Part shown: positions 2,977-44,075 of the stretch, piece after piece
How the letters are laid out: every line of letters starts with the position of its first letter
How positions within the stretch are numbered: the first letter of the stretch is position 1
Origin: an uncultured Oscillibacter sp.
GTDB taxonomy: Bacteria > Bacillota > Clostridia > Oscillospirales > Oscillospiraceae
Strand: one strand, 5' to 3'
Assembly: GCF_910588175.1 (NCBI RefSeq)
Contig: NZ_CAJUQQ010000005.1
DNA length: 64,000 nt
Program-made: the position numbers and the translations under genes
The notes under the pieces: model-generated
What the model saw: only the letters and a program-made list of their open reading frames with translations
The model's database searches: none
Told to the model about the DNA's origin: nothing

Positions 2977-3167
2977 AGCGGCCTCCCCTCCAGCCGTGCG
3001 CGGCTGAAAGCGGGCCGTTGCTCACTGGTCTTTAAGAGGCGTTTTCTAAACGCCTCTTCCGTTCTCCCTTGGGGGAACGGAAAAATTTCATATCTCCTCA
3101 CAGCGATATCCTCCCCTTTTCTTCCGCCGCATTGCGGCAGCAGTATAAAGTGCTCTCCCAGCAGGAC

Positions 3168-3807
3168 TCAGTGCCGAACGATCATCACACTGTGGAACTC
3201 GTCCGCAACCGGAATGGGAATGATTCCGGCCGCGCCGCAAAATTCGTCCACCGCGCGTCCCGCTCCAACTCCAGAAAACCCATAATCATGCACAAAAATC
3301 ATCCCCATGCGTGCCATGCGGGGGTAGAAGTATTTCAAGCCCTCAAGAATCGGCGTATACAGGTCCGCGTCAATGGAGACAAACGCAAACCGGACATTCT
3401 CCCCCATCCCTTCTGTCGTATCGGGGAAATAGCCCTTCTTCACAACGCACTTCTCCGGAAACGGCATCCTGCTGAGTACGGTCTGCACGCTGGTATCCTT
3501 CACCAGCTCCTTGATCGCGGCCGCGTTTATTTTGGAAAGATCATATTGCCGGTCTGCCGCGATATCACGTCCGTCAAACCCTTCAAACGTGTCAAACAGG
3601 TACAGTGCGCTCTCTGGAAACGCCTCGTTGATCAGCCTCGTTGATCAGCCGCGCAAAATCCCCCCGGAAAACGCCCAGCTCCGCGTTCCGGTCTATACAG
3701 CCGACGATTTCCGCGCGGTCTCCAGTAAAGAGCGTCAAAACCCCCTCAAATCCTCCGCCAAGACCATATATAACCAGCTGTGTTTTTCTCATTGCTCTTA
3801 CCACCAT
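3168..3807 (-). pseudogene. TylF/MycF-type SAM-dependent O-methyltransferase, frameshifted by a 13-bp tandem duplication
   Basis: ORF fragments 3592-3807 and 3168-3503 join in frame with no stop if one copy of CCTCGTTGATCAG is removed. The restored sequence reads ...ELGVFRGDFARLINEAFPESALYLFDTFEGFDGRD...FVSIDADLY...MIFVHDYG...AVDEF, which are TylF-family motifs. Confidence 0.75.
3623..3648. repeat. perfect 13-bp tandem duplication CCTCGTTGATCAG x2 (not a multiple of 3)
   Basis: Read directly: 3623-3635 is identical to 3636-3648. It lies inside the methyltransferase reading frame. Confidence 0.95.
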
Positions 3808-3813
3808 ATTTGC

Positions 3814-4611
3814 TTACTTCTCCTGCTCCGCCGCGCCGTGGCGCGCCGCGGAATCTCCGCTTTTCCAGGTGCAGTAATGGCAGGATTTCCGGGGATAGTC
3901 ATAGAACCGTCGAATCGTCTCCCGCTTTTCCTCCCGCGTCGTGCTGTCGTGGAGTTCTACATAGTCCCCCCGGTTGGGTACGCAGACGCCCAGTTCCGAG
4001 AGAAAGAGCGAGTTGCTGCACCGGTGGAGCTTTCCGCAAAAGACATGCATATTCTCCAGCCGAACCTGCGCGCACTGGGCGGCCTGCCGCGTTACATAGT
4101 CGTCCGGTTCCAGCAGGTCCCGGCAGGCCGTGTTGTCAATCCAGCCGCCAAAGTGCTGGTCCCCGAGATCACCGTAATATTTTTTCAGGACATACTCTAT
4201 ATGATTCTCTTCCAAAATCGCGGCAAACCGGTCCCGGGCTTTGGAAAGGTCCCCATAATCGCTGATCATCACCTTGAGCTTCCTTCCATAGGACAGCAGG
4301 CTCCGCAGTTCCTTGTCCGTGGGGAGAACCGTGGCGTTGGTCTCGACAATCAGCCGGTCGAAGCGGCCGTCGTATTGCTTGCAGTAATCAAACACCTCAT
4401 CCAGGTGCTTATGGGTAAAAATTTCCCCGCCCACAAATTGCAGCCATTCGATGTGATCGAACAAGGCAAACAAGGCGTCAATATCCGCTTTCATCTCCTC
4501 CACAGAGGCTCGGGGCGGATTTTGAAAAGCCGGCATGTGGTTGGAACACAGCCGGCAGCGCAGAGTGCAGACAAAGGTAGGGACAATAGACATACGCTTT
4601 GTTTTCAGCAT
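3814..4611 (-). CDS. radical SAM enzyme (small, Cys-rich C-terminus)
   Basis: CxxxCxxC in PTFVCTLRCRLCSNH. Additional Cys pairs CGKLHRC and CHYC. Start chosen at ATG 4609-4611 (MLKTKRM), with GGAGGA 10 nt upstream; the track ORF starts at 4659 and would overlap the upstream gene by 32 nt. Confidence 0.7.
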   Translation of the reverse strand: MLKTKRMSIVPTFVCTLRCRLCSNHMPAFQNPPRASVEEMKADIDALFALFDHIEWLQFVGGEIFTHKHLDEVFDYCKQYDGRFDRLIVETNATVLPTDKELRSLLSYGRKLKVMISDYGDLSKARDRFAAILEENHIEYVLKKYYGDLGDQHFGGWIDNTACRDLLEPDDYVTRQAAQCAQVRLENMHVFCGKLHRCSNSLFLSELGVCVPNRGDYVELHDSTTREEKRETIRRFYDYPRKSCHYCTWKSGDSAARHGAAEQEK

Positions 4612-4627
4612 TTTAAACATTCCTCCA

Positions 4628-5629
4628 TCAAACCGCGTAGAGTACCGTCTCATCCGCAAGCATGCTGTGATGCCGTAAATACAGCTTATAATCCGGATGG
4701 CAGCTCAGAATGAAACTCGGGATTTCCCACATATCCTCCGGTTTGTGATACACGCAAATGGCCAGCTTGGGGCGCTGCTCCCGGATGATTCGCTCCGCGC
4801 CCCGGAGGGCCGCCAGTTCGGAGCCCTCAATGTCCATCTTCAGGAAGGTCACAGGACGGTTTTCCAGCAGGTCGTCCAGACGGCGGACCTCAATTTCAAT
4901 GTCTCCCGACTCCGAAACTCTTGCGCCGCCCTCGCTGCCCTCCTGCGGGTCAAAGCGCAGCGTTGTATTCTTATCATACGCTCCATAGGGGAACAGTTCC
5001 GCCTGGGGATAATCCCGCAAGCTTTCCCGCGTAATTTGAAACTGCTTGGGGTTTGGCTCGAGAACATACGCGTGGCCGTCCTCAAAATGCTTCAAAAAAT
5101 ATTCTGTCGTGCTGCCATCCAAGGCGCCTACATCGGCGAAGAACTCGCCGCGCATACCCGGGCACATCGTCCAAATCTCAAAATATTGCGGCTCTTGAAG
5201 ACAGTCGAAAAACGCGAAATCATATTTGATTCCATACCGGTCCAATTTTGCCCTGATTTCATGCTGCGCAAGTTCCTTGCCCACGGTGATCAGCACCATA
5301 TACTCCTTAAAATCCGGCAGCTTCAAAAACTCCTCAAAGGAAATAACCGGATATCCCTCCAGCATACCGGTCCTGTATGTGTCAATGAAGAAGGACGCTT
5401 TTATACCATTCTGCGCCGCAACCTGTCCGCCCTTTCCCGCGCCGTAAAAACATACTTTCGAGGTATTTCCATACTCCCAAGCAGACGAATTTCCCCCAAC
5501 TATCCAATTGATTTCCTCGTTCTCGTGAAAGAACGAGTACAACAGCCGGTGCTTATAAATTTTCCTGGACGTTTCATCCTGCAAAGCGTCGTAAATTTTC
5601 TGAAATTCTTCCGCGTCAGGCAGTCTCAT
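4628..5629 (-). CDS. FkbM-family methyltransferase
   Basis: FADVGALDGSTTEYF, YVLEPNP, FLKMDIEGSELAALRGA and AICVYHKPEDMWEIP are typical FkbM motifs. N-terminal VCFYGAGKGG...FFID module. Confidence 0.85.
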   Translation of the reverse strand: MRLPDAEEFQKIYDALQDETSRKIYKHRLLYSFFHENEEINWIVGGNSSAWEYGNTSKVCFYGAGKGGQVAAQNGIKASFFIDTYRTGMLEGYPVISFEEFLKLPDFKEYMVLITVGKELAQHEIRAKLDRYGIKYDFAFFDCLQEPQYFEIWTMCPGMRGEFFADVGALDGSTTEYFLKHFEDGHAYVLEPNPKQFQITRESLRDYPQAELFPYGAYDKNTTLRFDPQEGSEGGARVSESGDIEIEVRRLDDLLENRPVTFLKMDIEGSELAALRGAERIIREQRPKLAICVYHKPEDMWEIPSFILSCHPDYKLYLRHHSMLADETVLYAV

Positions 5630-15854: not shown

Positions 15855-17435
15855 TCAGCCGAGCAGCTGCAGCACGCCCTGGGGAACAGCGTTGGCCTGG
15901 GCCAGCATCGCCTGAGCGGACTGGATCAGGATGTTGTTCTTGGTGTAGCTCATCATTTCCTCGGCCACGTCGGTGTCGCGGATGGTGGACTCGGCGTCCT
16001 GGATGTTCTCGGCCATGACGCTCAGGTTCTTCTGCGTGTGCTCCAGGCGGTTCTGGAGAGCGCCCAGATCGCCGCGGATGCCGGAAACATAGTTGATGGC
16101 GGACTTGATCACGCTGATCGCGGAGGCCGCGCCGTCCTGGGTTCCGATGTCGATGCCGTCAATGCCCATGGCGGCGGTGTGCATATCGCCGATGGAGACC
16201 TGCATCTGGTTGTAGCTGTCGGAGGTGTCGCCGATCTGGAGCCGCAGGGGGCTGCCGGTCTTGGCGTTTCCGGAGGCAACATCATATTTGTTGTTGGCGT
16301 AGGTGATGTTCAGGCCGGTCTTCTGGGACAGCTCCTTGGCAATATGCGCATCGCCGGTAGAGGTGGCCTTGATCACATTGATGGACTTATCCGTAATTTT
16401 CGCAATAGCGTCATCGTCCGCCGCGATCACAAATTTCTGGCCGTTGATGGTGAAGACGCAGTCCTCCAGCTTGCCGTTGCCCTCGCTCTTGGTGTACAGC
16501 TTGATAGCCGAACTCTTGAAGCTGATGGCGGGGTCCTTGGCGGAGGTCTTCACGGAGACTTCCTTGTTGGCCACCGTAGAGATGGTGTTGTTGGAAGTCT
16601 TGGTGATCTGGATGGAGCCCACCTGGGGAGCGTTGAGGCCCGCCACCTTCGCGTCGAACTGGATCGTGCCGTCCGCGGGAGTGGAGATGGAGAAGTCGTT
16701 GGCCAGGTTGCCCTTGGTCTCGTTCTTGATGATGGTGGCAAACTCCGTGGCGGAGACCGCAGAGGTGGTGGTCAGGTTGTACTTGGTGCCGTTGGCGGTG
16801 GTCACATAGGTCTTATCGCTGGAGACGGTCAGCTCCACATTGGCGGACTTTCCGTTGGTCAGGCCGATGGTGATGTTCAGCTTGTCGCCGGCCTTCAGCT
16901 GAGTGGCGTTGGCAGTGAGGGCCAGAGAATACTGACCGGCAACCGCGGCGGCCTCGTCGGTGACCAGGCTGGTCTTGAAGTTGTTGATGGAGACGCTTCC
17001 GCCGTCCTTGGACATGGAGCCGTCCAGCAGGTTGATGCCGTTGAAGTTGGCGGAGTCGGCAATCCGGTTGATTTCGGTCTTGAGGGCGTCGACCTCTTTC
17101 TGGAGGTTCAGGCGGTCCACGGGATCGTCATAGGTGCCGTTGGCGGACTGGGTGGCCAGGTAGTCCATGCGGTTGAGCATGTCCTGGATTTCCTGCATGG
17201 CGCCCTCGGCGGTCTTCACCAGGGAGATGCCGTCCTTGACGTTTTTCTGGGCGGCGTTCAGGCCGGTGATCTGGGCCCGCATCTTCTCGGAAATGGCAAG
17301 GCCCGCGGCGTCGTCACCGGCGCGGTTGATCTTGTAGCCGGAGCTCAGCTTTTCCAGGTTCTTAGACAGAGCGCTGGTGTTGGTGTTGTAGTTCCGGTAG
17401 GCGTTCATCGCCATAATATTGTGCTGAATACGCAT
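15855..17435 (-). CDS. fliC: flagellin (526 aa) with a large Ser/Thr-rich central domain
   Basis: Conserved N-terminus MRIQHNIMAMNAYRNYNTNTSALSKNLEKLSSGYKINRAGDDAAGLAISEKMRAQI and C-terminus TKNNILIQSAQAMLAQANAVPQGVLQLLG. Confidence 0.95.
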   Translation of the reverse strand: MRIQHNIMAMNAYRNYNTNTSALSKNLEKLSSGYKINRAGDDAAGLAISEKMRAQITGLNAAQKNVKDGISLVKTAEGAMQEIQDMLNRMDYLATQSANGTYDDPVDRLNLQKEVDALKTEINRIADSANFNGINLLDGSMSKDGGSVSINNFKTSLVTDEAAAVAGQYSLALTANATQLKAGDKLNITIGLTNGKSANVELTVSSDKTYVTTANGTKYNLTTTSAVSATEFATIIKNETKGNLANDFSISTPADGTIQFDAKVAGLNAPQVGSIQITKTSNNTISTVANKEVSVKTSAKDPAISFKSSAIKLYTKSEGNGKLEDCVFTINGQKFVIAADDDAIAKITDKSINVIKATSTGDAHIAKELSQKTGLNITYANNKYDVASGNAKTGSPLRLQIGDTSDSYNQMQVSIGDMHTAAMGIDGIDIGTQDGAASAISVIKSAINYVSGIRGDLGALQNRLEHTQKNLSVMAENIQDAESTIRDTDVAEEMMSYTKNNILIQSAQAMLAQANAVPQGVLQLLG

Positions 17436-36432: not shown

Positions 36433-36948
36433 ATGAAACTGACCACAAAACAGCTGACCCTCTGCGCCCTGCTGACGGCCATGGCCCTGGCGCTGAGCTA
36501 TCTGGAAAACCTGTTTCCCCTCTCCCTGGCCATCCCCGTCCCCGGCGTGAAGCTGGGGCTGGCCAACATCGTGACGGTTTTCGCCCTCTGGGCCCTGGGG
36601 CCGGGGCAGACGCTTCTGATTCTGCTGGCCCGGTGCTTTCTGGGCTCCCTCTTCGCCGGAAACCTGAACGCGCTGATCTTCTCCCTGCTGGGGGGGCTCT
36701 GCGCCCTGGGGACCATGGTCTTTCTCTCCCGGCGGCGGGGGCTGTCCCTGTACGGCGTATCCGTGGGCGGCGCGGCGGCCCATAACTGCGGGCAGATTGC
36801 CGCCGCCGTTCTGACCCTGGGCAGCGCCGCTCCCCTCTATTATCTGCCCGTTTTGCTGGCGGTATCCCTCCTCACCGGCGGATTGACCGGACTGGTCTCC
36901 GCCTGTCTGTTCCAGGGAGCGCGCCATACCGACTTGATGAAAGGCTGA
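36433..36948 (+). CDS. Gx transporter family protein (Hpre_diP_synt_I-like)
   Basis: LALSYLENLFP...VPGVKLGLANIV...GNLNALIFSLLGG...AAAHNCGQI; a membrane protein. Confidence 0.7.
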   Translation: MKLTTKQLTLCALLTAMALALSYLENLFPLSLAIPVPGVKLGLANIVTVFALWALGPGQTLLILLARCFLGSLFAGNLNALIFSLLGGLCALGTMVFLSRRRGLSLYGVSVGGAAAHNCGQIAAAVLTLGSAAPLYYLPVLLAVSLLTGGLTGLVSACLFQGARHTDLMKG

Positions 36949-36953
36949 GCGCG

Positions 36954-38012
36954 ATGGACAAGAAGGACAAAAAGGACGAAATCATCCTCCAGCAGTTGGA
37001 GGTCATCCAAACCCTGACGGAGCACAACCTCCGCCGGATGGGCACGGATTTCTGGGGTCCCCCGCCGGAGGAAAAGGCCCCCCAGGCCGAAACTCCCAAG
37101 GCTCCCGAGGCGGCCCCCAAGCCCCCGAACGCCTCCCAGGACCCGGGCGAGGCGGCGGAAGCGCCTCCCCCGCCGGAGAAGCTGGAGGACCTGCAAAAGG
37201 AGCTGGAGGGCTACATCGGCCTGGCCGCCGTAAAGCGGGAGGTCCGGAGCCTCATTGACCTGGTGAAAATCCACCAGCTCCGGGAGAAAAACGGCCTGCC
37301 GGTGACGGAGCTGTCCCTCCACATGGTCTTCTCCGGCAGTCCCGGCACCGGAAAAACCACCATCGCCCGGCTGATGGCCCGGATTTACCGCTCTCTGGGC
37401 ATCCTCTCCAAGGGGCAGCTGGTGGAGGTGGACCGGAGCGGCCTTGTGGCGGGCTACGTGGGTCAGACGGCGCTGAAAACCAAGAAGGCCGTGGAAAAGG
37501 CCCTGGGCGGCGTGCTGTTCATCGACGAGGCCTACGCCCTCAACGGCTCCACGGGCAGCGACTTCGGCCAGGAAGCCATTGACACCATCCTGAAAGCCAT
37601 GGAGGACCACCGGAACGACCTGGTGGTCATCGCCGCCGGGTACGCGGATTTGATGGACCGCTTCATCCACTCCAACCCCGGCCTGGAATCCCGGTTCAAC
37701 CGCTTTCTCCACTTCCAGGACTACACCCCGGAGGAACTGCTGGAGATCTTCAAAATGCGCTGCGGCAAGGGCTGCTATGCGCTGGAGGAGGAGGCCGAGG
37801 GCCTTGTCCGGGACCTCCTCCGGGACGAAAACCGGGACCCGGAGTCCTTCGGCAACGCCCGGGGGGTGCGGAACGTGTTTGAGCGTATCCTGGTCTGTCA
37901 GGCCGGCCGCCTGGCGGGACAGGAGAACGTCACCCGGGAGGATCTCCAAACGCTGACGGCGGCGGACGTGCTGGCCGCCCGGGGCCGGGAGACCCCGTCC
38001 CTGGGGGGCTGA
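36954..38012 (+). CDS. AAA+ ATPase, SpoVK/CbbX-like
   Basis: GLAAVKREVRSLIDLVKI...MVFSGSPGTGKTTIARLMARIY...GGVLFIDEAYAL...VVIAAGY. Confidence 0.85.
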   Translation: MDKKDKKDEIILQQLEVIQTLTEHNLRRMGTDFWGPPPEEKAPQAETPKAPEAAPKPPNASQDPGEAAEAPPPPEKLEDLQKELEGYIGLAAVKREVRSLIDLVKIHQLREKNGLPVTELSLHMVFSGSPGTGKTTIARLMARIYRSLGILSKGQLVEVDRSGLVAGYVGQTALKTKKAVEKALGGVLFIDEAYALNGSTGSDFGQEAIDTILKAMEDHRNDLVVIAAGYADLMDRFIHSNPGLESRFNRFLHFQDYTPEELLEIFKMRCGKGCYALEEEAEGLVRDLLRDENRDPESFGNARGVRNVFERILVCQAGRLAGQENVTREDLQTLTAADVLAARGRETPSLGG

Positions 38013-38057
38013 AGCGCGTTTGCCTCCAAACGCCCCCCTTCCCGGGTTCATAACACT

Positions 38058-38090
38058 CCGGACATTCCCGAAGAATGTCCGGCTTTTTTT
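38058..38090 (+). terminator. rho-independent terminator
   Basis: CCGGACATTC-CCGAA-GAATGTCCGG followed by CTTTTTTT. Confidence 0.85.
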
Positions 38091-38194
38091 GAAGAATTTT
38101 CCTCCTGCGGCCCGTATGGTTATTTGGGGCTTGACTTTTCGCGTCCCCGGATGTATCATTGCATTATTGAACTAGTGAAATGGAGGTCGTATTT

Positions 38195-39904
38195 ATGAAA
38201 ATGGCAAACAGCCTGCTCCGGCGGGCGGCGGGGCTGTGTCTGGCGGCGCTGCTGGTGGTCCCGGCCCTGGCGGCGGAGCCGCTGAGCGCCAAGCAGCGGC
38301 AGGAGGACCTGGATTTTCTCTATGAAAAGGTCCTGGCGGGCTTCCACCCGGACGCCTTCGCCAACACGCCGGAGAGCGAGTTCCTGGCGCTGAAGGCGGA
38401 GATCGAGGGACGGCTGGAGACCGTCAGCGGCACGGAATTCCTTCTGGACCTGATGCGCCTGGCGGCTCTGGTGGGGGACTCCCACACCTCCGTCTCCGTG
38501 GGGAGCGCGGCGAATTTCCGGGCCTATCCCTTCTCCCTGGTCCGGCGGGGGGAGAGCTGGTATCTCTCCGCCGCGGCCCCGGAGGACGAGGACCTGCTGT
38601 GCCAGGAGGTCACGCTTCTGGCGGGAAAGCCGGTGGAGGAGGTCATCGAGGCTTACGGAACCCTGTTTGCCTCCGACAACCCGGTGCACCTCCGGCGGCA
38701 GTTCCGGCAGGCCTGCAACGTGGCGGACATCTACGAGTACCTGGGGCTGGTGGAGGCCGGGAAGCCCCTGACCGTCACGCTGAAAGGCGGGAAGGCCCTC
38801 AGCCTGGCGCCCGTGGGCATGGAGGAGATGAACAAGCTGGAGATCGCGCGCATTGCCGGCCTCATCAAGGACCAGCCGGAGACGGCGGCGGCGGACGCCT
38901 ACTACTTCGCCAAGCCTCTGACGGAAGACGCGTACTACATTCAGTACAACACCTGCCAGGAGGCGGAGGACCTTCCCATGGAGGACTTCGCCGCCCTGGT
39001 GGCAAAGGATTTGAAAGCGGGGGACTACAGCCGGGTACTGCTGGACCTGCGGAACAACGGCGGCGGGTCCGACGGGGTGATCTGGCCCCTGCTTGAGCGC
39101 CTGCGGCTGGCCATGGACGGCGGCTGTGAGCTGGTGGGCCTCATCGGGGAGGGCACCTTCTCCTCCGCCCTCATCAACGCCGTGGAAATCCAGGAGATGG
39201 GCGGCGTGCTGGCGGGAGAGCCCGCCGGGGGCAGCGTGTGCCACTTCGGGGCGGTGAAGACCTTCCAGCTCCCTAATTCCAAGGTCCGGGGGCAGGTGTC
39301 CAGCAAGTATATTGACCTGAACACCCTGCTGGACGCGGCGGCGGGCCGGGGCGTGGAGGCGTTGGAGCCGGACGTGCTGGTATACCAAACCCTGGAAGAC
39401 ACGCTGAACGGCAAGGATACCACCGTGGACTGGCTGCTGGCCCACCCGGAGAAGCTGACGCAAAAGGCATTCCCCAACGCGCCCCTGACCCGGGGGCGGT
39501 TCATCGGCCAGCTTTATGAGGCGGCGGGAAGCCCGGATGTGGAAATCGGGGAGGAGCTTCCTTTCAAAGACAGCTTCGGCATTGAATGGTACCTCCCTGC
39601 CATGGCCTGGGCCAAGGAGCAGGGCATCGCCAAGGGCGGCGCGGAGGGAACCTTCTCCGCCTCCAGGCCCCTGACCTGGAAAGAAGCCGCCGTATTCCTG
39701 GGCCGGACGGCGGAGGCGCTGGACCTGAAACCGGACCCGGCGGCAAAGCGGATGGGCCCCGTCCCGGCGGCGCTGGGCGGAAGCCAGGACGCGGTGACCC
39801 TGGCCTGGGATCTGGGGCTGCTTCCGGCGGACGCGGACTTCACCGGAGGCCTCACCCGGGCCCAGGGAGAGACGCTGGCGGCGGCGCTGGAAGCCCTGCT
39901 ATAA
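38195..39904 (+). CDS. secreted S41-family peptidase with a C-terminal SLH-like region
   Basis: Signal peptide ...VVPALAAEP. LLDLRNNGGGSD (S41 motif). C-terminal FKDSFGIEWYLPAMAWAKEQGIAKGG..GTF is SLH-like. Start at ATG 38195, with GGAGG 8 nt upstream. Confidence 0.7.
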   Translation: MKMANSLLRRAAGLCLAALLVVPALAAEPLSAKQRQEDLDFLYEKVLAGFHPDAFANTPESEFLALKAEIEGRLETVSGTEFLLDLMRLAALVGDSHTSVSVGSAANFRAYPFSLVRRGESWYLSAAAPEDEDLLCQEVTLLAGKPVEEVIEAYGTLFASDNPVHLRRQFRQACNVADIYEYLGLVEAGKPLTVTLKGGKALSLAPVGMEEMNKLEIARIAGLIKDQPETAAADAYYFAKPLTEDAYYIQYNTCQEAEDLPMEDFAALVAKDLKAGDYSRVLLDLRNNGGGSDGVIWPLLERLRLAMDGGCELVGLIGEGTFSSALINAVEIQEMGGVLAGEPAGGSVCHFGAVKTFQLPNSKVRGQVSSKYIDLNTLLDAAAGRGVEALEPDVLVYQTLEDTLNGKDTTVDWLLAHPEKLTQKAFPNAPLTRGRFIGQLYEAAGSPDVEIGEELPFKDSFGIEWYLPAMAWAKEQGIAKGGAEGTFSASRPLTWKEAAVFLGRTAEALDLKPDPAAKRMGPVPAALGGSQDAVTLAWDLGLLPADADFTGGLTRAQGETLAAALEALL

Positions 39905-40002
39905 AAAGTGCCAGGGCCATGGAAAAAGGGCGGACACACAGGTCCGCCCCTACAGGGTGTTTTTCCGGAGGAAACGCGAAACATCCACGGCACACATGGG
40001 CG

Positions 40003-40039
40003 AAAAAAGGACCACGGGCTTTGCCCGTGGTCCTCTTTT
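40003..40039. terminator. bidirectional rho-independent terminator (ends the nifJ transcript)
   Basis: AAAAAAGGACCACGGGC-TTT-GCCCGTGGTCCTCTTTT. Confidence 0.8.
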
Positions 40040-40211
40040 GTTAAAAACTCTCCCGTCCTACGTCCCCCACTTTTGGGGCCCCCGCAAAATCCGCAGATTT
40101 TGTGGGGAGAGGAAGAACAAACGGAACGGCGTGAAGCCTGCCCGAAGGGCGGGATTCACAAAGTGCAGTTTGTTCTGACGAGGAGCCTGCTCCCCCTTGA
40201 AGGGAGGCGGA

Positions 40212-40283
40212 GCAAGGGAGCGGGCGCAGTTCTCGCCAGAGGCCGCAGGCCGGCGGCGGGAACGGAGCTTAGCGGACTTTGCG
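40212..40283 (-). repeat. REP-like structured 3'-UTR element, copy B (after nifJ)
   Basis: mRNA sense: CGCAAAGTCCGCTAAGCTCCGTTCCCGCC...GGCGAGAACTGCGCCCGCTCCCTTGC. It has the same flanks as copy A and the same 5-nt offset from the stop codon. Confidence 0.8.
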
Positions 40284-40288
40284 ACGCC

Positions 40289-43200
40289 TCAGGCGTACAT
40301 TTCCTTCAGCTTCAGCAGGTGCTGATAGCGGTCCATAGCCGCCTTCTCGTTGCGCTGGAACAGCTCGCTGGCCCGGTCGGGGAACTCGCGGGTCAGGCGG
40401 CTGTAACGGGCCTCGTTCATCAGGAACTCCTGATACCCGCCGGCGGGCTCCTTGGAATCCAGGGTGAACTTGGCGCCCTCAGCGGCGGGATTGAAGCGGA
40501 ACAGGTTCCAGTAGCCGCACTCCACGGCCTTCTTCATTTCCGCCTGGCAGTTCATCATGCCGCCCTTGATGCTGTGCATCTCGCAGGGAGAGTAGGCGAT
40601 GATCAGGGACGGGCCGGGATAGGCCTCGGCCTCCTGAATGGCCTTGAGGGTCTGGGCGGGATTGGCGCCCATGGCCACCTGGGCCACGTAGATATAGCCG
40701 TAGCTCATGGCGATCTCCGCCAGGGATTTTTTCTTGATCTCCTTACCAGCGGCGGCGAACTGGGCCACCTGGCCGATGTTGGAGGCCTTGGAAGCCTGGC
40801 CGCCGGTGTTGGAATAGACCTCGGTATCGAAGACGAAGATGTTCACATCGTTGCCGGAGGCCAGGACGTGGTCCACGCCGCCGAAGCCGATGTCGTAAGC
40901 CCAGCCGTCGCCGCCGAAGATCCACAGAGACTTCTTGGACAGGTATTCCTTGTCCTTCAGAATCTCCAGACACAGCTTGCAGGCGTCGCAGTCGCAGTAC
41001 TTCGCGCCGCTGTCCTTCAGCTCCTTGGCGTGGGCCTGGAACTTGGGCAGCTGGTCGCCGAAGACCTTGGCGGCCTCGGGGCTTCCCGTAAAGGCCACGA
41101 TGTCATCCACGGTCATGACGCTCTCTTCCAGGAGCTTCACATACTCGCAGGTGGCCTCCGCGTTGGCCTTGCCGTCTTCCATGGTATCCAGCCACTTCTG
41201 GGCGGCGTCCTTCAAGCCCTGGTAGGTGTGGGGCACCGCGATGAGCTGCTTGGTCAGGTCCGCCAGACGGTCGCGAATGGCCTTCTGGCCCAGATACATG
41301 CCCAGGCCGTGCTCGGCGTTGTCCTCAAACAGGGAGTTGGACCAGGCGGGGCCGTGGCCGGCCGCGTTGGTGCAGTAGGGAGAGGTGGCCGCGGGTCCGC
41401 CCCAGATGGAGGAGCAGCCGGTGGCGTTGGAGATATACATCCGGTCACCGAAGAGCTGGGTGACGAGACGGGCATAGCTGGTCTCGGCGCAGCCGGCGCA
41501 GGAGCCGGAGAACTCGAGGAGGGGCTTGTGGAACTGGCTGCCGGGCACCGTGTTGTCCTGGAGATCCTTCTTCTCGGCGACCTCGGCCACGCAGTAGTTG
41601 AAGACCTCCTGCTGCTTGGCCTCCTGCTCCTGGGCCACCATCTTCAGGGCCTTCTCGCCCTTGCGGCCCGGGCAGACGCCCACGCACACGCCGCAGCCCA
41701 TGCAGTCCAGGGGAGACACGGCGATGGTAAACTTGTAGCCCTTGCCCTTGCCGGTTTTGTCGATGACCTTGGCGGCGGCGGGGAGCTTGGCGGCTTCCTC
41801 CTCCGTCATGGCGAAGGGACGGATGGTGGCATGGGGGCAGACATAGGCGCACTGGTTGCACTGGATGCAGTTCTCGGGCATCCAGGTGGGAACGGAGACG
41901 GCCACGCCGCGCTTTTCATAGGCGGCGGCGCCCAGCTCGAACTGGCCGTCGGCGTGCTTGACGAAGGCGGAGACGGGGAGGCTGTCGCCGTCCATCTTGC
42001 CCACGGGGTTCAGGATGGTCTTCACCTGCTCCACCAGCTCCGGCTTGCCGGTCAGGGTGGTGGCGTCGGGGGTATCCTGGGCGTCGGCCCAGTCGGCGGG
42101 AACCTCGAACTTCTTATAAGCCGTGGCTCCGGCGTCGATGGCCTTGTGGTTCATATCCACCACGTCCTGGCCCTTTTTCAGGTAGGAGTGGGTGGCGGCG
42201 TCCTTCATATACTGGATGGCCTCGGCCTCGGGCATGACTTTCGCCAGGGAGAAGAAGGCGGACTGAAGGATGGTGTTGGTCCGCTTGCCCATGCCGATTT
42301 CTTTCGCCAGGTCGATGGCGTTGATGGTGTAGACCTGGATGTTATTTTGGGCGATATACCGTTTCGCCACGGCGGGCATGTGCTTGTTGACTTCCTCGTC
42401 GCTCCACTGGCAGTTGATCAGGAAGGTGCCGCCGGGCTTCACGTCCCGGACCATGGGGAAGGCCTTGATGATATAGGAAGGCACGTGGCAGGCCACGAAG
42501 TCGGCCTTGTTGATATAATAAGGAGCACGGATGGGCTGATCGCCGAAGCGCAGGTGGCTGACGGTGACGCCGCCGGTCTTCTTGGAGTCGTACTGGAAGT
42601 AGGCCTGGACGTATTTGTCCGTGTGGTCGCCGATGATCTTGATGGAGTTCTTGTTGGCGCCCACGGTGCCGTCGCCGCCGAGACCCCAGAACTTGCACTC
42701 GATGGTGCCCTCCGCCGCGGTGTTGGGGGCGGGCTTCTCCTCCAGGCTGAGGTGGGTCACGTCGTCCACGATGCCGATGGTGAACTGCCGCTTGGGCTCG
42801 GCCTTGGTCAGCTCCTCATAGACGGCGAAGACGCTGCGGGGCGGGGTATCCTTGCTGCCCAGGCCGTAGCGGCCGCCGATGACGGTGACGTCCGTCCGGC
42901 CCGCGTTGGCAAGAGAGGCCACCACGTCCACGTACAGGGGCTCGCCCAGGGAGCCGGGCTCCTTGGTGCGGTCCAGCACGGCGATCTTCTTGCAGGTGGC
43001 GGGGATGGCGGAAATCAGCTTGTCGGCGCGCCAGGGGCGGTACAGACGGACCTTGATAAGGCCCACCTTTTCGCCGTGGGCGTTCATATAGTCGATGACT
43101 TCCTCGGCCACGTCGCAGATGGAGCCCATGGCGATGATGACCCGATCCGCGTCGGGAGCGCCGTAGTAGTTGAAGAGCTGGTAGTCAGTGCCCAGCTTCT

Positions 43201-43954
43201 CGTTGACCTTGCCCATATACTTCTCCACCACGTCGGGCAGGGCGTCGTAATAGGGGTTGCAGGCCTCGCGGTGCTGGAAGAAGATGTCGCCGTTTTCATG
43301 AGAGCCCCGCATGTTGGGCCGCTCGGGGTTCAGCGCGTGCTTGCGGAAGGCGTCCACGGCCTCCATGTCGCACATTTCCTTCAGGTCGTCGTAATCCCAC
43401 ACGGCCACCTTCTGAATCTCGTGGGAGGTGCGGAAGCCGTCGAAGAAGTTCACGAAGGGAACCCGGCCCTCGATGGCGGCCAGATGGGCCACGGGGCCCA
43501 GGTCCATGACCTCCTGGACGTTGCCCTCGCAGAGCATGGCGAAGCCCGTCTGGCGGCAGGCCATCACGTCGGAGTGGTCGCCGAAGATGTTCAGCGCGTG
43601 GCTGGACACGGTACGGGCGGACACGTGGAACACGCAGGGCAGCAGCTCGCCGGCGATCTTGTACATGTTGGGGATCATCAGCAGCAGGCCCTGAGAGGCG
43701 GTGTAGGTGGTGGTCATCGCGCCGGTGGCCAGGGAGCCGTGGACGGTGCCGGAAGCGCCGGCCTCGGACTGCATCTCGCAGACCTTCACGGTGGTGCCGA
43801 AGATGTTTTTCTGACCGGCGGCTGCCCACTGGTCGACCAAGTCTGCCATGGGCGAAGACGGGGTGATGGGATAGATGCCCGCCACCTCGGTAAACGCGTA
43901 GCTGACATATGCCGCCGCGTTGTTGCCGTCCATGGACTTGAACTTTCTTGCCAT
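40289..43954 (-). CDS. nifJ: pyruvate:ferredoxin (flavodoxin) oxidoreductase
   Basis: 1221 aa. MARKFKSMDGNNAAAYVSYAFTEVAGIYPITPSSPMA. Two 4Fe-4S motifs, CIQCNQCAYVCP and CMGCGVCVGVCP. ThDP region GGDGWAYDIGFGG. Start at 43954 (AGGAGGT RBS), not the track start at 44038. Confidence 0.95.
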   Translation of the reverse strand: MARKFKSMDGNNAAAYVSYAFTEVAGIYPITPSSPMADLVDQWAAAGQKNIFGTTVKVCEMQSEAGASGTVHGSLATGAMTTTYTASQGLLLMIPNMYKIAGELLPCVFHVSARTVSSHALNIFGDHSDVMACRQTGFAMLCEGNVQEVMDLGPVAHLAAIEGRVPFVNFFDGFRTSHEIQKVAVWDYDDLKEMCDMEAVDAFRKHALNPERPNMRGSHENGDIFFQHREACNPYYDALPDVVEKYMGKVNEKLGTDYQLFNYYGAPDADRVIIAMGSICDVAEEVIDYMNAHGEKVGLIKVRLYRPWRADKLISAIPATCKKIAVLDRTKEPGSLGEPLYVDVVASLANAGRTDVTVIGGRYGLGSKDTPPRSVFAVYEELTKAEPKRQFTIGIVDDVTHLSLEEKPAPNTAAEGTIECKFWGLGGDGTVGANKNSIKIIGDHTDKYVQAYFQYDSKKTGGVTVSHLRFGDQPIRAPYYINKADFVACHVPSYIIKAFPMVRDVKPGGTFLINCQWSDEEVNKHMPAVAKRYIAQNNIQVYTINAIDLAKEIGMGKRTNTILQSAFFSLAKVMPEAEAIQYMKDAATHSYLKKGQDVVDMNHKAIDAGATAYKKFEVPADWADAQDTPDATTLTGKPELVEQVKTILNPVGKMDGDSLPVSAFVKHADGQFELGAAAYEKRGVAVSVPTWMPENCIQCNQCAYVCPHATIRPFAMTEEEAAKLPAAAKVIDKTGKGKGYKFTIAVSPLDCMGCGVCVGVCPGRKGEKALKMVAQEQEAKQQEVFNYCVAEVAEKKDLQDNTVPGSQFHKPLLEFSGSCAGCAETSYARLVTQLFGDRMYISNATGCSSIWGGPAATSPYCTNAAGHGPAWSNSLFEDNAEHGLGMYLGQKAIRDRLADLTKQLIAVPHTYQGLKDAAQKWLDTMEDGKANAEATCEYVKLLEESVMTVDDIVAFTGSPEAAKVFGDQLPKFQAHAKELKDSGAKYCDCDACKLCLEILKDKEYLSKKSLWIFGGDGWAYDIGFGGVDHVLASGNDVNIFVFDTEVYSNTGGQASKASNIGQVAQFAAAGKEIKKKSLAEIAMSYGYIYVAQVAMGANPAQTLKAIQEAEAYPGPSLIIAYSPCEMHSIKGGMMNCQAEMKKAVECGYWNLFRFNPAAEGAKFTLDSKEPAGGYQEFLMNEARYSRLTREFPDRASELFQRNEKAAMDRYQHLLKLKEMYA

Positions 43955-44046
43955 AAACTTACCTCCTGTAAATTTGCCGCCCGGGGACGGCAATCTCTCC
44001 AAGACAGAGGACCGGCGCTCTCTCCCGCCGGACCCCATGCGGTTCT

Positions 44047-44075
44047 ATTATAGCACGGCTCTTTCCCGGTGTAAA
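44047..44075 (-). promoter_or_regulatory. strong sigma-A promoter of nifJ
   Basis: The minus strand reads TTTACA-N17-TATAAT with an extended -10 TGc. Confidence 0.7.

Follow-up and report, generated by a model that had tools for sequence, protein, structure and literature searches.

The methyltransferase gene at positions 3168-3807 of the window (the whole 64-kb stretch of DNA analysed here) is probably a pseudogene that has been hit twice, in which a real 13-bp tandem duplication came as the second lesion after a 366-bp deletion, and in which changes in repeat copy number would toggle between inactive forms. Both the 13-bp frameshift and the 366-bp deletion are seen when the window copy is compared with a 330-aa gene of the same species. 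The original prediction had presented the duplication as either the pseudogenizing lesion or the reversible switch of an otherwise intact gene; most likely, it is instead a second lesion in a dead one. The gene and its fragments are as follows.

3168..3807, minus strand: remnant of a TylF/MycF/NovP-type sugar O-methyltransferase gene, damaged at two sites compared with the 330-aa gene of conspecific strains
3623..3648: perfect 13-bp tandem duplication (copies at 3623-3635 and 3636-3648), an insertion of 13 bases that changes the frame
3592..3807, minus strand: 5' ORF fragment of 71 aa, whose last 13 residues, DQRGVSRERTVPV, are out of frame
3168..3488, minus strand: 3' fragment in the original frame, a 106-aa product according to gene callers

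The duplicated unit, CCTCGTTGATCAG, occurs twice in perfect tandem, exactly as had been described. Tandem Repeats Finder reported a repeat at 3622-3650 (period 13, 2.2 copies, 100% match), a span wider than 26 bp because it takes in a G ahead of the repeat and CC behind it. These bases (G at 3622, CC at 3649-3650) bound the duplication with GCC microhomology, that is, two GCC triplets 13 bp apart. This repeat is the longest perfect tandem duplication within the 64-kb window, and none of 100 dinucleotide-preserving shuffles contained such a repeat. The duplication is a real, inherited lesion.

Repeat copy number sets the reading frame of the gene. The one-copy junction reads GCGCGGCTGATCAACGAGGCGTTTCC and is in frame, while the two-copy junction reads AACGAGGCTGATCAACGAGGCG and is out of frame. 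Removing one copy gives an uninterrupted ORF of 208 codons plus a stop; the open frame and the motifs quoted for it in the original prediction were borne out, and the predicted length of 209 aa had counted the stop. The repaired ORF matches Pfam TylF (PF05711) with 49.4 bits (cut-off 23) as well as Methyltransf_24, and it retains the SAM-binding glycine motif and the conserved acidic metal-binding motifs, with ELGVFRG (motif I), DTFEGF, and the metal-binding SIDADLY and VHDYG in place. Rescue of the two-copy form by translational frameshifting or as a split enzyme is unlikely, as a slippery motif is absent and no canonical start codon lies close to the break in the downstream frame, which yields the fragment at 3168-3488.

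As had been claimed, the frameshifted TylF-like gene belongs to a flagellin-glycan island, of which three further features are used below.

15855..17435, minus strand: flagellin gene (Pfam Flagellin_N and Flagellin_C), heading the run of glycan genes
4628..5629, minus strand: FkbM-type methyltransferase, a hybrid of two tandem paralogues with a crossover near nt 800
3034..3058: perfect hairpin just downstream of the methyltransferase gene, with an 11-bp stem and its loop at 3045-3047

Downstream of flagellin, and co-oriented with it, are an APS-kinase-like gene and a PEP-mutase fused to two nucleotidyltransferase domains. The same run holds an Fe-alcohol dehydrogenase, a thiamine-dependent decarboxylase, three family-2 glycosyltransferases, a sugar nucleotidyltransferase, an FkbM methyltransferase, and two radical-SAM genes, so that "flagellin-modification island" is a fair description. 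The FkbM hybrid takes its first ~800 nt from copy 1 and its last ~200 nt from copy 2 of a paralogue pair that is still separate in strains of the full-length type (L017-L025). In contig L010 the crossover lies elsewhere (near nt 1000), and this pair has therefore collapsed at least twice.

Other observations concern the surroundings of the gene. The PEP-mutase fusion, the decarboxylase, the Fe-alcohol dehydrogenase, and the APS-kinase-like gene, directly after flagellin at 8898-13613 (minus strand), form a phosphonate-biosynthesis set, and the flagellar glycan may thus carry a phosphonate group. A 670-aa ORF without a Pfam match, immediately after flagellin at 13624-15636 (minus strand), is a candidate flagellin glycosyltransferase or accessory factor. 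The radical-SAM genes at 1636-2976 and 3814-4659 (minus strand) flank the methyltransferase; in one of them, the N-terminal domain is PglD_N-like and resembles the N-domains of the neighboring methyltransferases, which suggests a shared targeting or oligomerization module. The 3-nt loop of the hairpin at 3034-3058 reads AGA or TCT, both orientations being present among strains and on several backgrounds, and a second hairpin in a sister species (L213-L217, near 3200 of L213) shows an AA/TT loop flip; these look like recurrent hairpin-loop inversions. Farther away, at 36840-44053, long ORFs (439, 435, and 1381 aa) had no Pfam match at E <= 0.001. Glutamine synthetases of mouse-gut Oscillospiraceae/Oscillibacter genomes share 91-94% identity with that of the window, and mouse gut catalogues were the source of several related contigs; the DNA comes from an uncultured member of the Oscillospiraceae living in the mouse gut.

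The rest of the gene had been described as intact. This is not the case, as codons 44-165 of the conspecific 330-aa gene are missing.

3679..3685: junction of the 366-bp in-frame deletion (codons 44-165 of the 330-aa gene), with a single CTCCGCG left

At 90% identity, the repaired protein clusters with conspecific 330-aa forms (P0125, on 22-33 contigs, and P0132), which have the first 43 and last 165 residues in common with the window protein, carry 122 extra residues between them, and show a lone substitution, F/C, near the C-terminus. When the 330-aa form was used as the query of a protein-guided scan of GTDB representative genomes, no close copy was found, the best relative having 48% identity; the island of this species is thus absent from those genomes. 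In full-length alleles, a 7-bp direct repeat (CGCGGAG on the coding strand) brackets the 366 bp that the window allele lacks, and the loss is typical of deletions between short direct repeats. The junction, only ~30 bp from the duplication, was read by eye in L017, L001, and the window because MAFFT misplaced the 366-bp gap, and was then confirmed by an exact string search. All deletion-type sequences examined (17/17) carry the deletion, whether they have one copy of the 13-bp unit or two. Conversely, the full-length loci that cover the duplication site have one copy in 32 cases out of 32, and the duplication was not found on a full-length gene in our collection; we infer from this that the deletion came first. 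A three-copy allele was likewise not found in the collection, and the site is therefore no general hotspot.

The AlphaFold model of the 330-aa form (mean pLDDT 86.7) has three parts: residues 9-94 form a Rossmann-like domain at the N-terminus, residues from about 100 to 140 a low-confidence linker, and a methyltransferase domain follows, opening with a helix (141-156) and a strand (162-166). The helix, which holds R143, is modeled with 10-residue block pLDDT means of 88 to 97. Loss of residues 44-165 deprives the protein of its linker and first helix and of the greater part of both the N-domain and the first strand. Every one of 119 aligned homologs has residues at positions 140-165, with R143 invariant (119/119) and G161 conserved in 97%. 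A second alignment again shows R143 without exception (60/60), and G167, G171, D190, D264, D266, and D292 are invariant in 60 homologs. Coverage of the TylF profile decreases from positions 78-248 in the full-length form, which scores 59.9 bits against Pfam TylF, to positions 97-248 in the window form.

Foldseek matched the full-length model to MycF, NovP, SpnH, and CalS11 (probability 1.00), and a sequence search against the PDB found MycF, NovP, and SpnH. The gene resembles these metal-dependent sugar O-methyltransferases in its conserved SAM and acidic metal motifs. They act on antibiotic deoxysugars, whereas the gene studied here lies in a flagellin-glycan island; unlike them, its full-length version has an extra N-terminal C2185-like Rossmann-type domain, and the window copy lacks the helix and strand that precede motif I in a complete catalytic fold. 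The one-copy 208-aa form, the "ON" state of the proposed switch, is probably inactive, because the invariant R143 and the core helix were lost with the deletion. Conservation and the model thus argue against the functional in-frame product that would be expected of a phase-variable gene. An active minimal enzyme is conceivable, as the in-frame deletion keeps the catalytic and metal motifs, and the 208-aa form may be one.

The full-length alleles of the species are themselves highly variable at one place. Their linker is encoded by TTC-GGGGAGGGGGGG-AGC (Phe-Gly-Glu-Gly-Gly-Ser), which was surveyed at loci L017-L044 and L205-L212 (for example, L017:8403-8417). The following forms of this tract were verified at the DNA level.

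G4AG7, in frame: 10 loci
GGGTGGAG7 (TG insertion), +2: 8 loci
G10, -2: 4 loci
GGGGGGC (8-bp deletion), -8: 6 loci
G11, out of frame: 3 loci
G13, out of frame: 3 loci
G4AG8, out of frame: 1 locus
G9, in frame, 329 aa: 1 locus

For other tract lengths, the proteins were predicted and then looked up by exact sequence. G8, G14, G10 with Asp80, and G12 with Glu80 were found by exact protein look-up only, P0132 corresponds at the protein level to G12 with Asp80, and the G11 protein was found on two SNP backgrounds. The pure G run therefore extends from G8 to G14 in public data, and it is in frame only at G9 and G12. Besides the frameshift of the window, at least eight frameshift alleles occur at the G tract. 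The gene has more than ten natural alleles; most of these are OFF, and disrupted alleles make up the majority of contigs. Several tract lengths recur in independent studies and assemblers, while those seen on a single contig could be homopolymer sequencing errors. It should be noted that G or C runs of at least 7 are under-represented in the window (11 observed vs about 43 expected). The tract encodes residues 116-120, bordering the lowest-confidence segment of the model (pLDDT <50 at 120-125), and in such a linker one glycine more or less would be tolerated. In the sister species (L213-L219, 78% protein identity), a G7 run at the corresponding place in the linker splits the ortholog, which carries another frameshift close to its start; the gene is inactivated independently there.

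These alleles recall the flagellin glycosylation locus of Campylobacter jejuni, with its homopolymeric G/C-tract contingency genes such as Cj1295 (PMC3068675; reviewed in PMC8355987). In both cases, a modifier of the flagellin glycan has its frame set by the length of a G run, here G8 to G14 in full-length conspecific alleles. Unlike in Campylobacter, the gene belongs to Gram-positive gut Clostridia, which are of a different phylum, its tract falls within a linker between two domains, and the length variation is known here from allele comparison. We consider it possible, as a tentative reading, that this is a poly-G contingency gene whose G8-G14 run, in a disordered linker, switches flagellar methylation, and that the window lineage deleted the tract while its 13-bp repeat may flip. 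If true, such a Campylobacter-style poly-G switch would be undescribed in gut Clostridia commensals. The ON/OFF methylation of the flagellar glycan put forward in the original prediction is thus plausible for the species, with the G tract as the likely switch, but the 13-bp site is probably not that switch. The window allele, from which the G tract has been deleted, is no longer part of a mechanism of the Campylobacter type.

Loss of the gene might also have been selected in the mouse gut, for example by escape from antibodies or phages, the deletion and the duplication together making a "locked OFF" state in place of a stochastic G-tract switch. This is rather unlikely in our view. It would agree with the many independent inactivating alleles in one species and their majority among contigs, with the independent inactivation in the sister species, with the loss of the neighboring methyltransferase paralog through two different crossovers, and with the status of the Campylobacter G-tract genes as known contingency loci. 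However, the same pattern results if selection on a dispensable decoration is relaxed, all the more so with a mutable G tract, and once a gene is dead, a further lesion can arise without selection; the many OFF alleles fit selection or relaxed constraint alike.

Both copy states of the 13-bp unit were found in public assemblies, as had been suggested as a check. The 71-aa broken product is present on ~83 public contigs in 125 index blocks (NCBI, JGI, ENA, and Logan), which come from different assemblers and include SPAdes-style NODE contigs and Logan contigs. The one-copy protein that had been predicted exists exactly (P0001, 100% identity over 208 aa) on 6 contigs; these numbers are contig counts and not strain counts. 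The fetched contigs were all at least 96% identical to the window (16/16), and 15 of the 16 were at least 98.8% identical. Within the gene, the 13 bp are the sole difference between one-copy and two-copy contigs, bar one SNP in one contig, and no other degenerative change has accumulated across the compared contigs, which points either to a recent origin of both lesions or to some remaining conservation. An exact-pattern scan for the locus with one to three repeat copies had no match in GTDB representative genomes or JGI metagenome contigs, and these two sources consequently gave no genome-level comparison.

Three one-copy contigs have two-copy counterparts with identical flanks (0 SNPs): L001 with L015 and L016 (7.6 kb), L002 with L007 (7.1 kb), and L005 with L012 (2.6 kb). 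In nature, the duplication must therefore either have reverted or have changed backgrounds through recombination. The three twin pairs sit on different downstream haplotypes, the one-copy state being on at least three flank haplotypes. Among one-copy contigs, those that extend upstream have a derived background (5887G, 5366T, and the window-type FkbM hybrid), and the two-copy contig L011 has an ancestral-looking one, with both FkbM genes and upstream SNPs as in full-length strains. If there was no recombination, this pattern would imply an early origin of the duplication and at least one precise loss afterwards, and it fits what a repeatedly toggling site would give. Copy number is indeed discordant with the flanks in a four-gamete test, but SNP pairs in the same few kb show all four combinations too, so that recombination or mosaic metagenome assembly can explain the discordance without reversion. 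Recombination being an equally good explanation, we do not claim reversion.

The closest precedent for the 13-bp duplication is capsule phase variation in pneumococcus, where spontaneous tandem duplications occur in cap3A, cap8E, and tts (Waite et al. 2001, 2003; cited in PMC4022640). There, as here, a short perfect duplication within the ORF frameshifts a surface-glycan gene, the one-copy form restores the frame, and both states occur in populations. By analogy, the 208-aa one-copy enzyme would be active, and gain or loss of 13 bp would turn flagellar glycan methylation off or on. The natural occurrence of both alleles on identical flanks, the independence of copy number from flank haplotype and from the FkbM rearrangement, and the intact catalytic motifs downstream of the break are consistent with such a working reversible switch, which we nevertheless regard as improbable. 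In pneumococcus the one-copy allele is intact and active and switching was measured in culture, whereas the "ON" allele here lacks 122 codons, including the arginine and core helix found in all 119 homologs, and switching would have to be deduced from discordant haplotypes that recombination could produce. In addition, two-copy contigs far outnumber one-copy contigs (~83 vs 6), and neither a duplication on full-length alleles nor a three-copy form was found among the sequences collected.

That the duplication is an assembly or sequencing artefact, always a general possibility, can be dismissed with near certainty, as the identical allele is present on ~83 contigs from many samples and several assemblers, and as all of the two-copy contigs read as DNA (10/10) carry the duplication.

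We thus favor a pseudogene with two successive lesions. First, 366 bp would have been lost between the two CGCGGAG repeats, removing most of the N-terminal domain, the linker, and the helix and strand with which the methyltransferase fold begins. Slipped-strand mispairing between the 3-bp GCC microhomologies, 13 bp apart, would then have produced the 13-bp duplication and the frameshift. In principle this duplication could be lost again precisely, most likely toggling the gene between two inactive forms. Across the species, the gene has been inactivated many times, mainly via its hypervariable G tract, and the window lesion is part of this pattern. The collapsed FkbM pair and the doubly frameshifted ortholog of the sister species agree with such wider decay.

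The window gene should accordingly be annotated as a pseudogene with two lesions, and neither as an intact gene that was broken recently nor as a switch. If the G tract of the full-length alleles switches within clones, stochastic variation of flagellar sugars would reach from Campylobacter-like pathogens to abundant gut Clostridia and, if true, this would bear on how flagellated commensals meet host antibodies, innate recognition, and phages.
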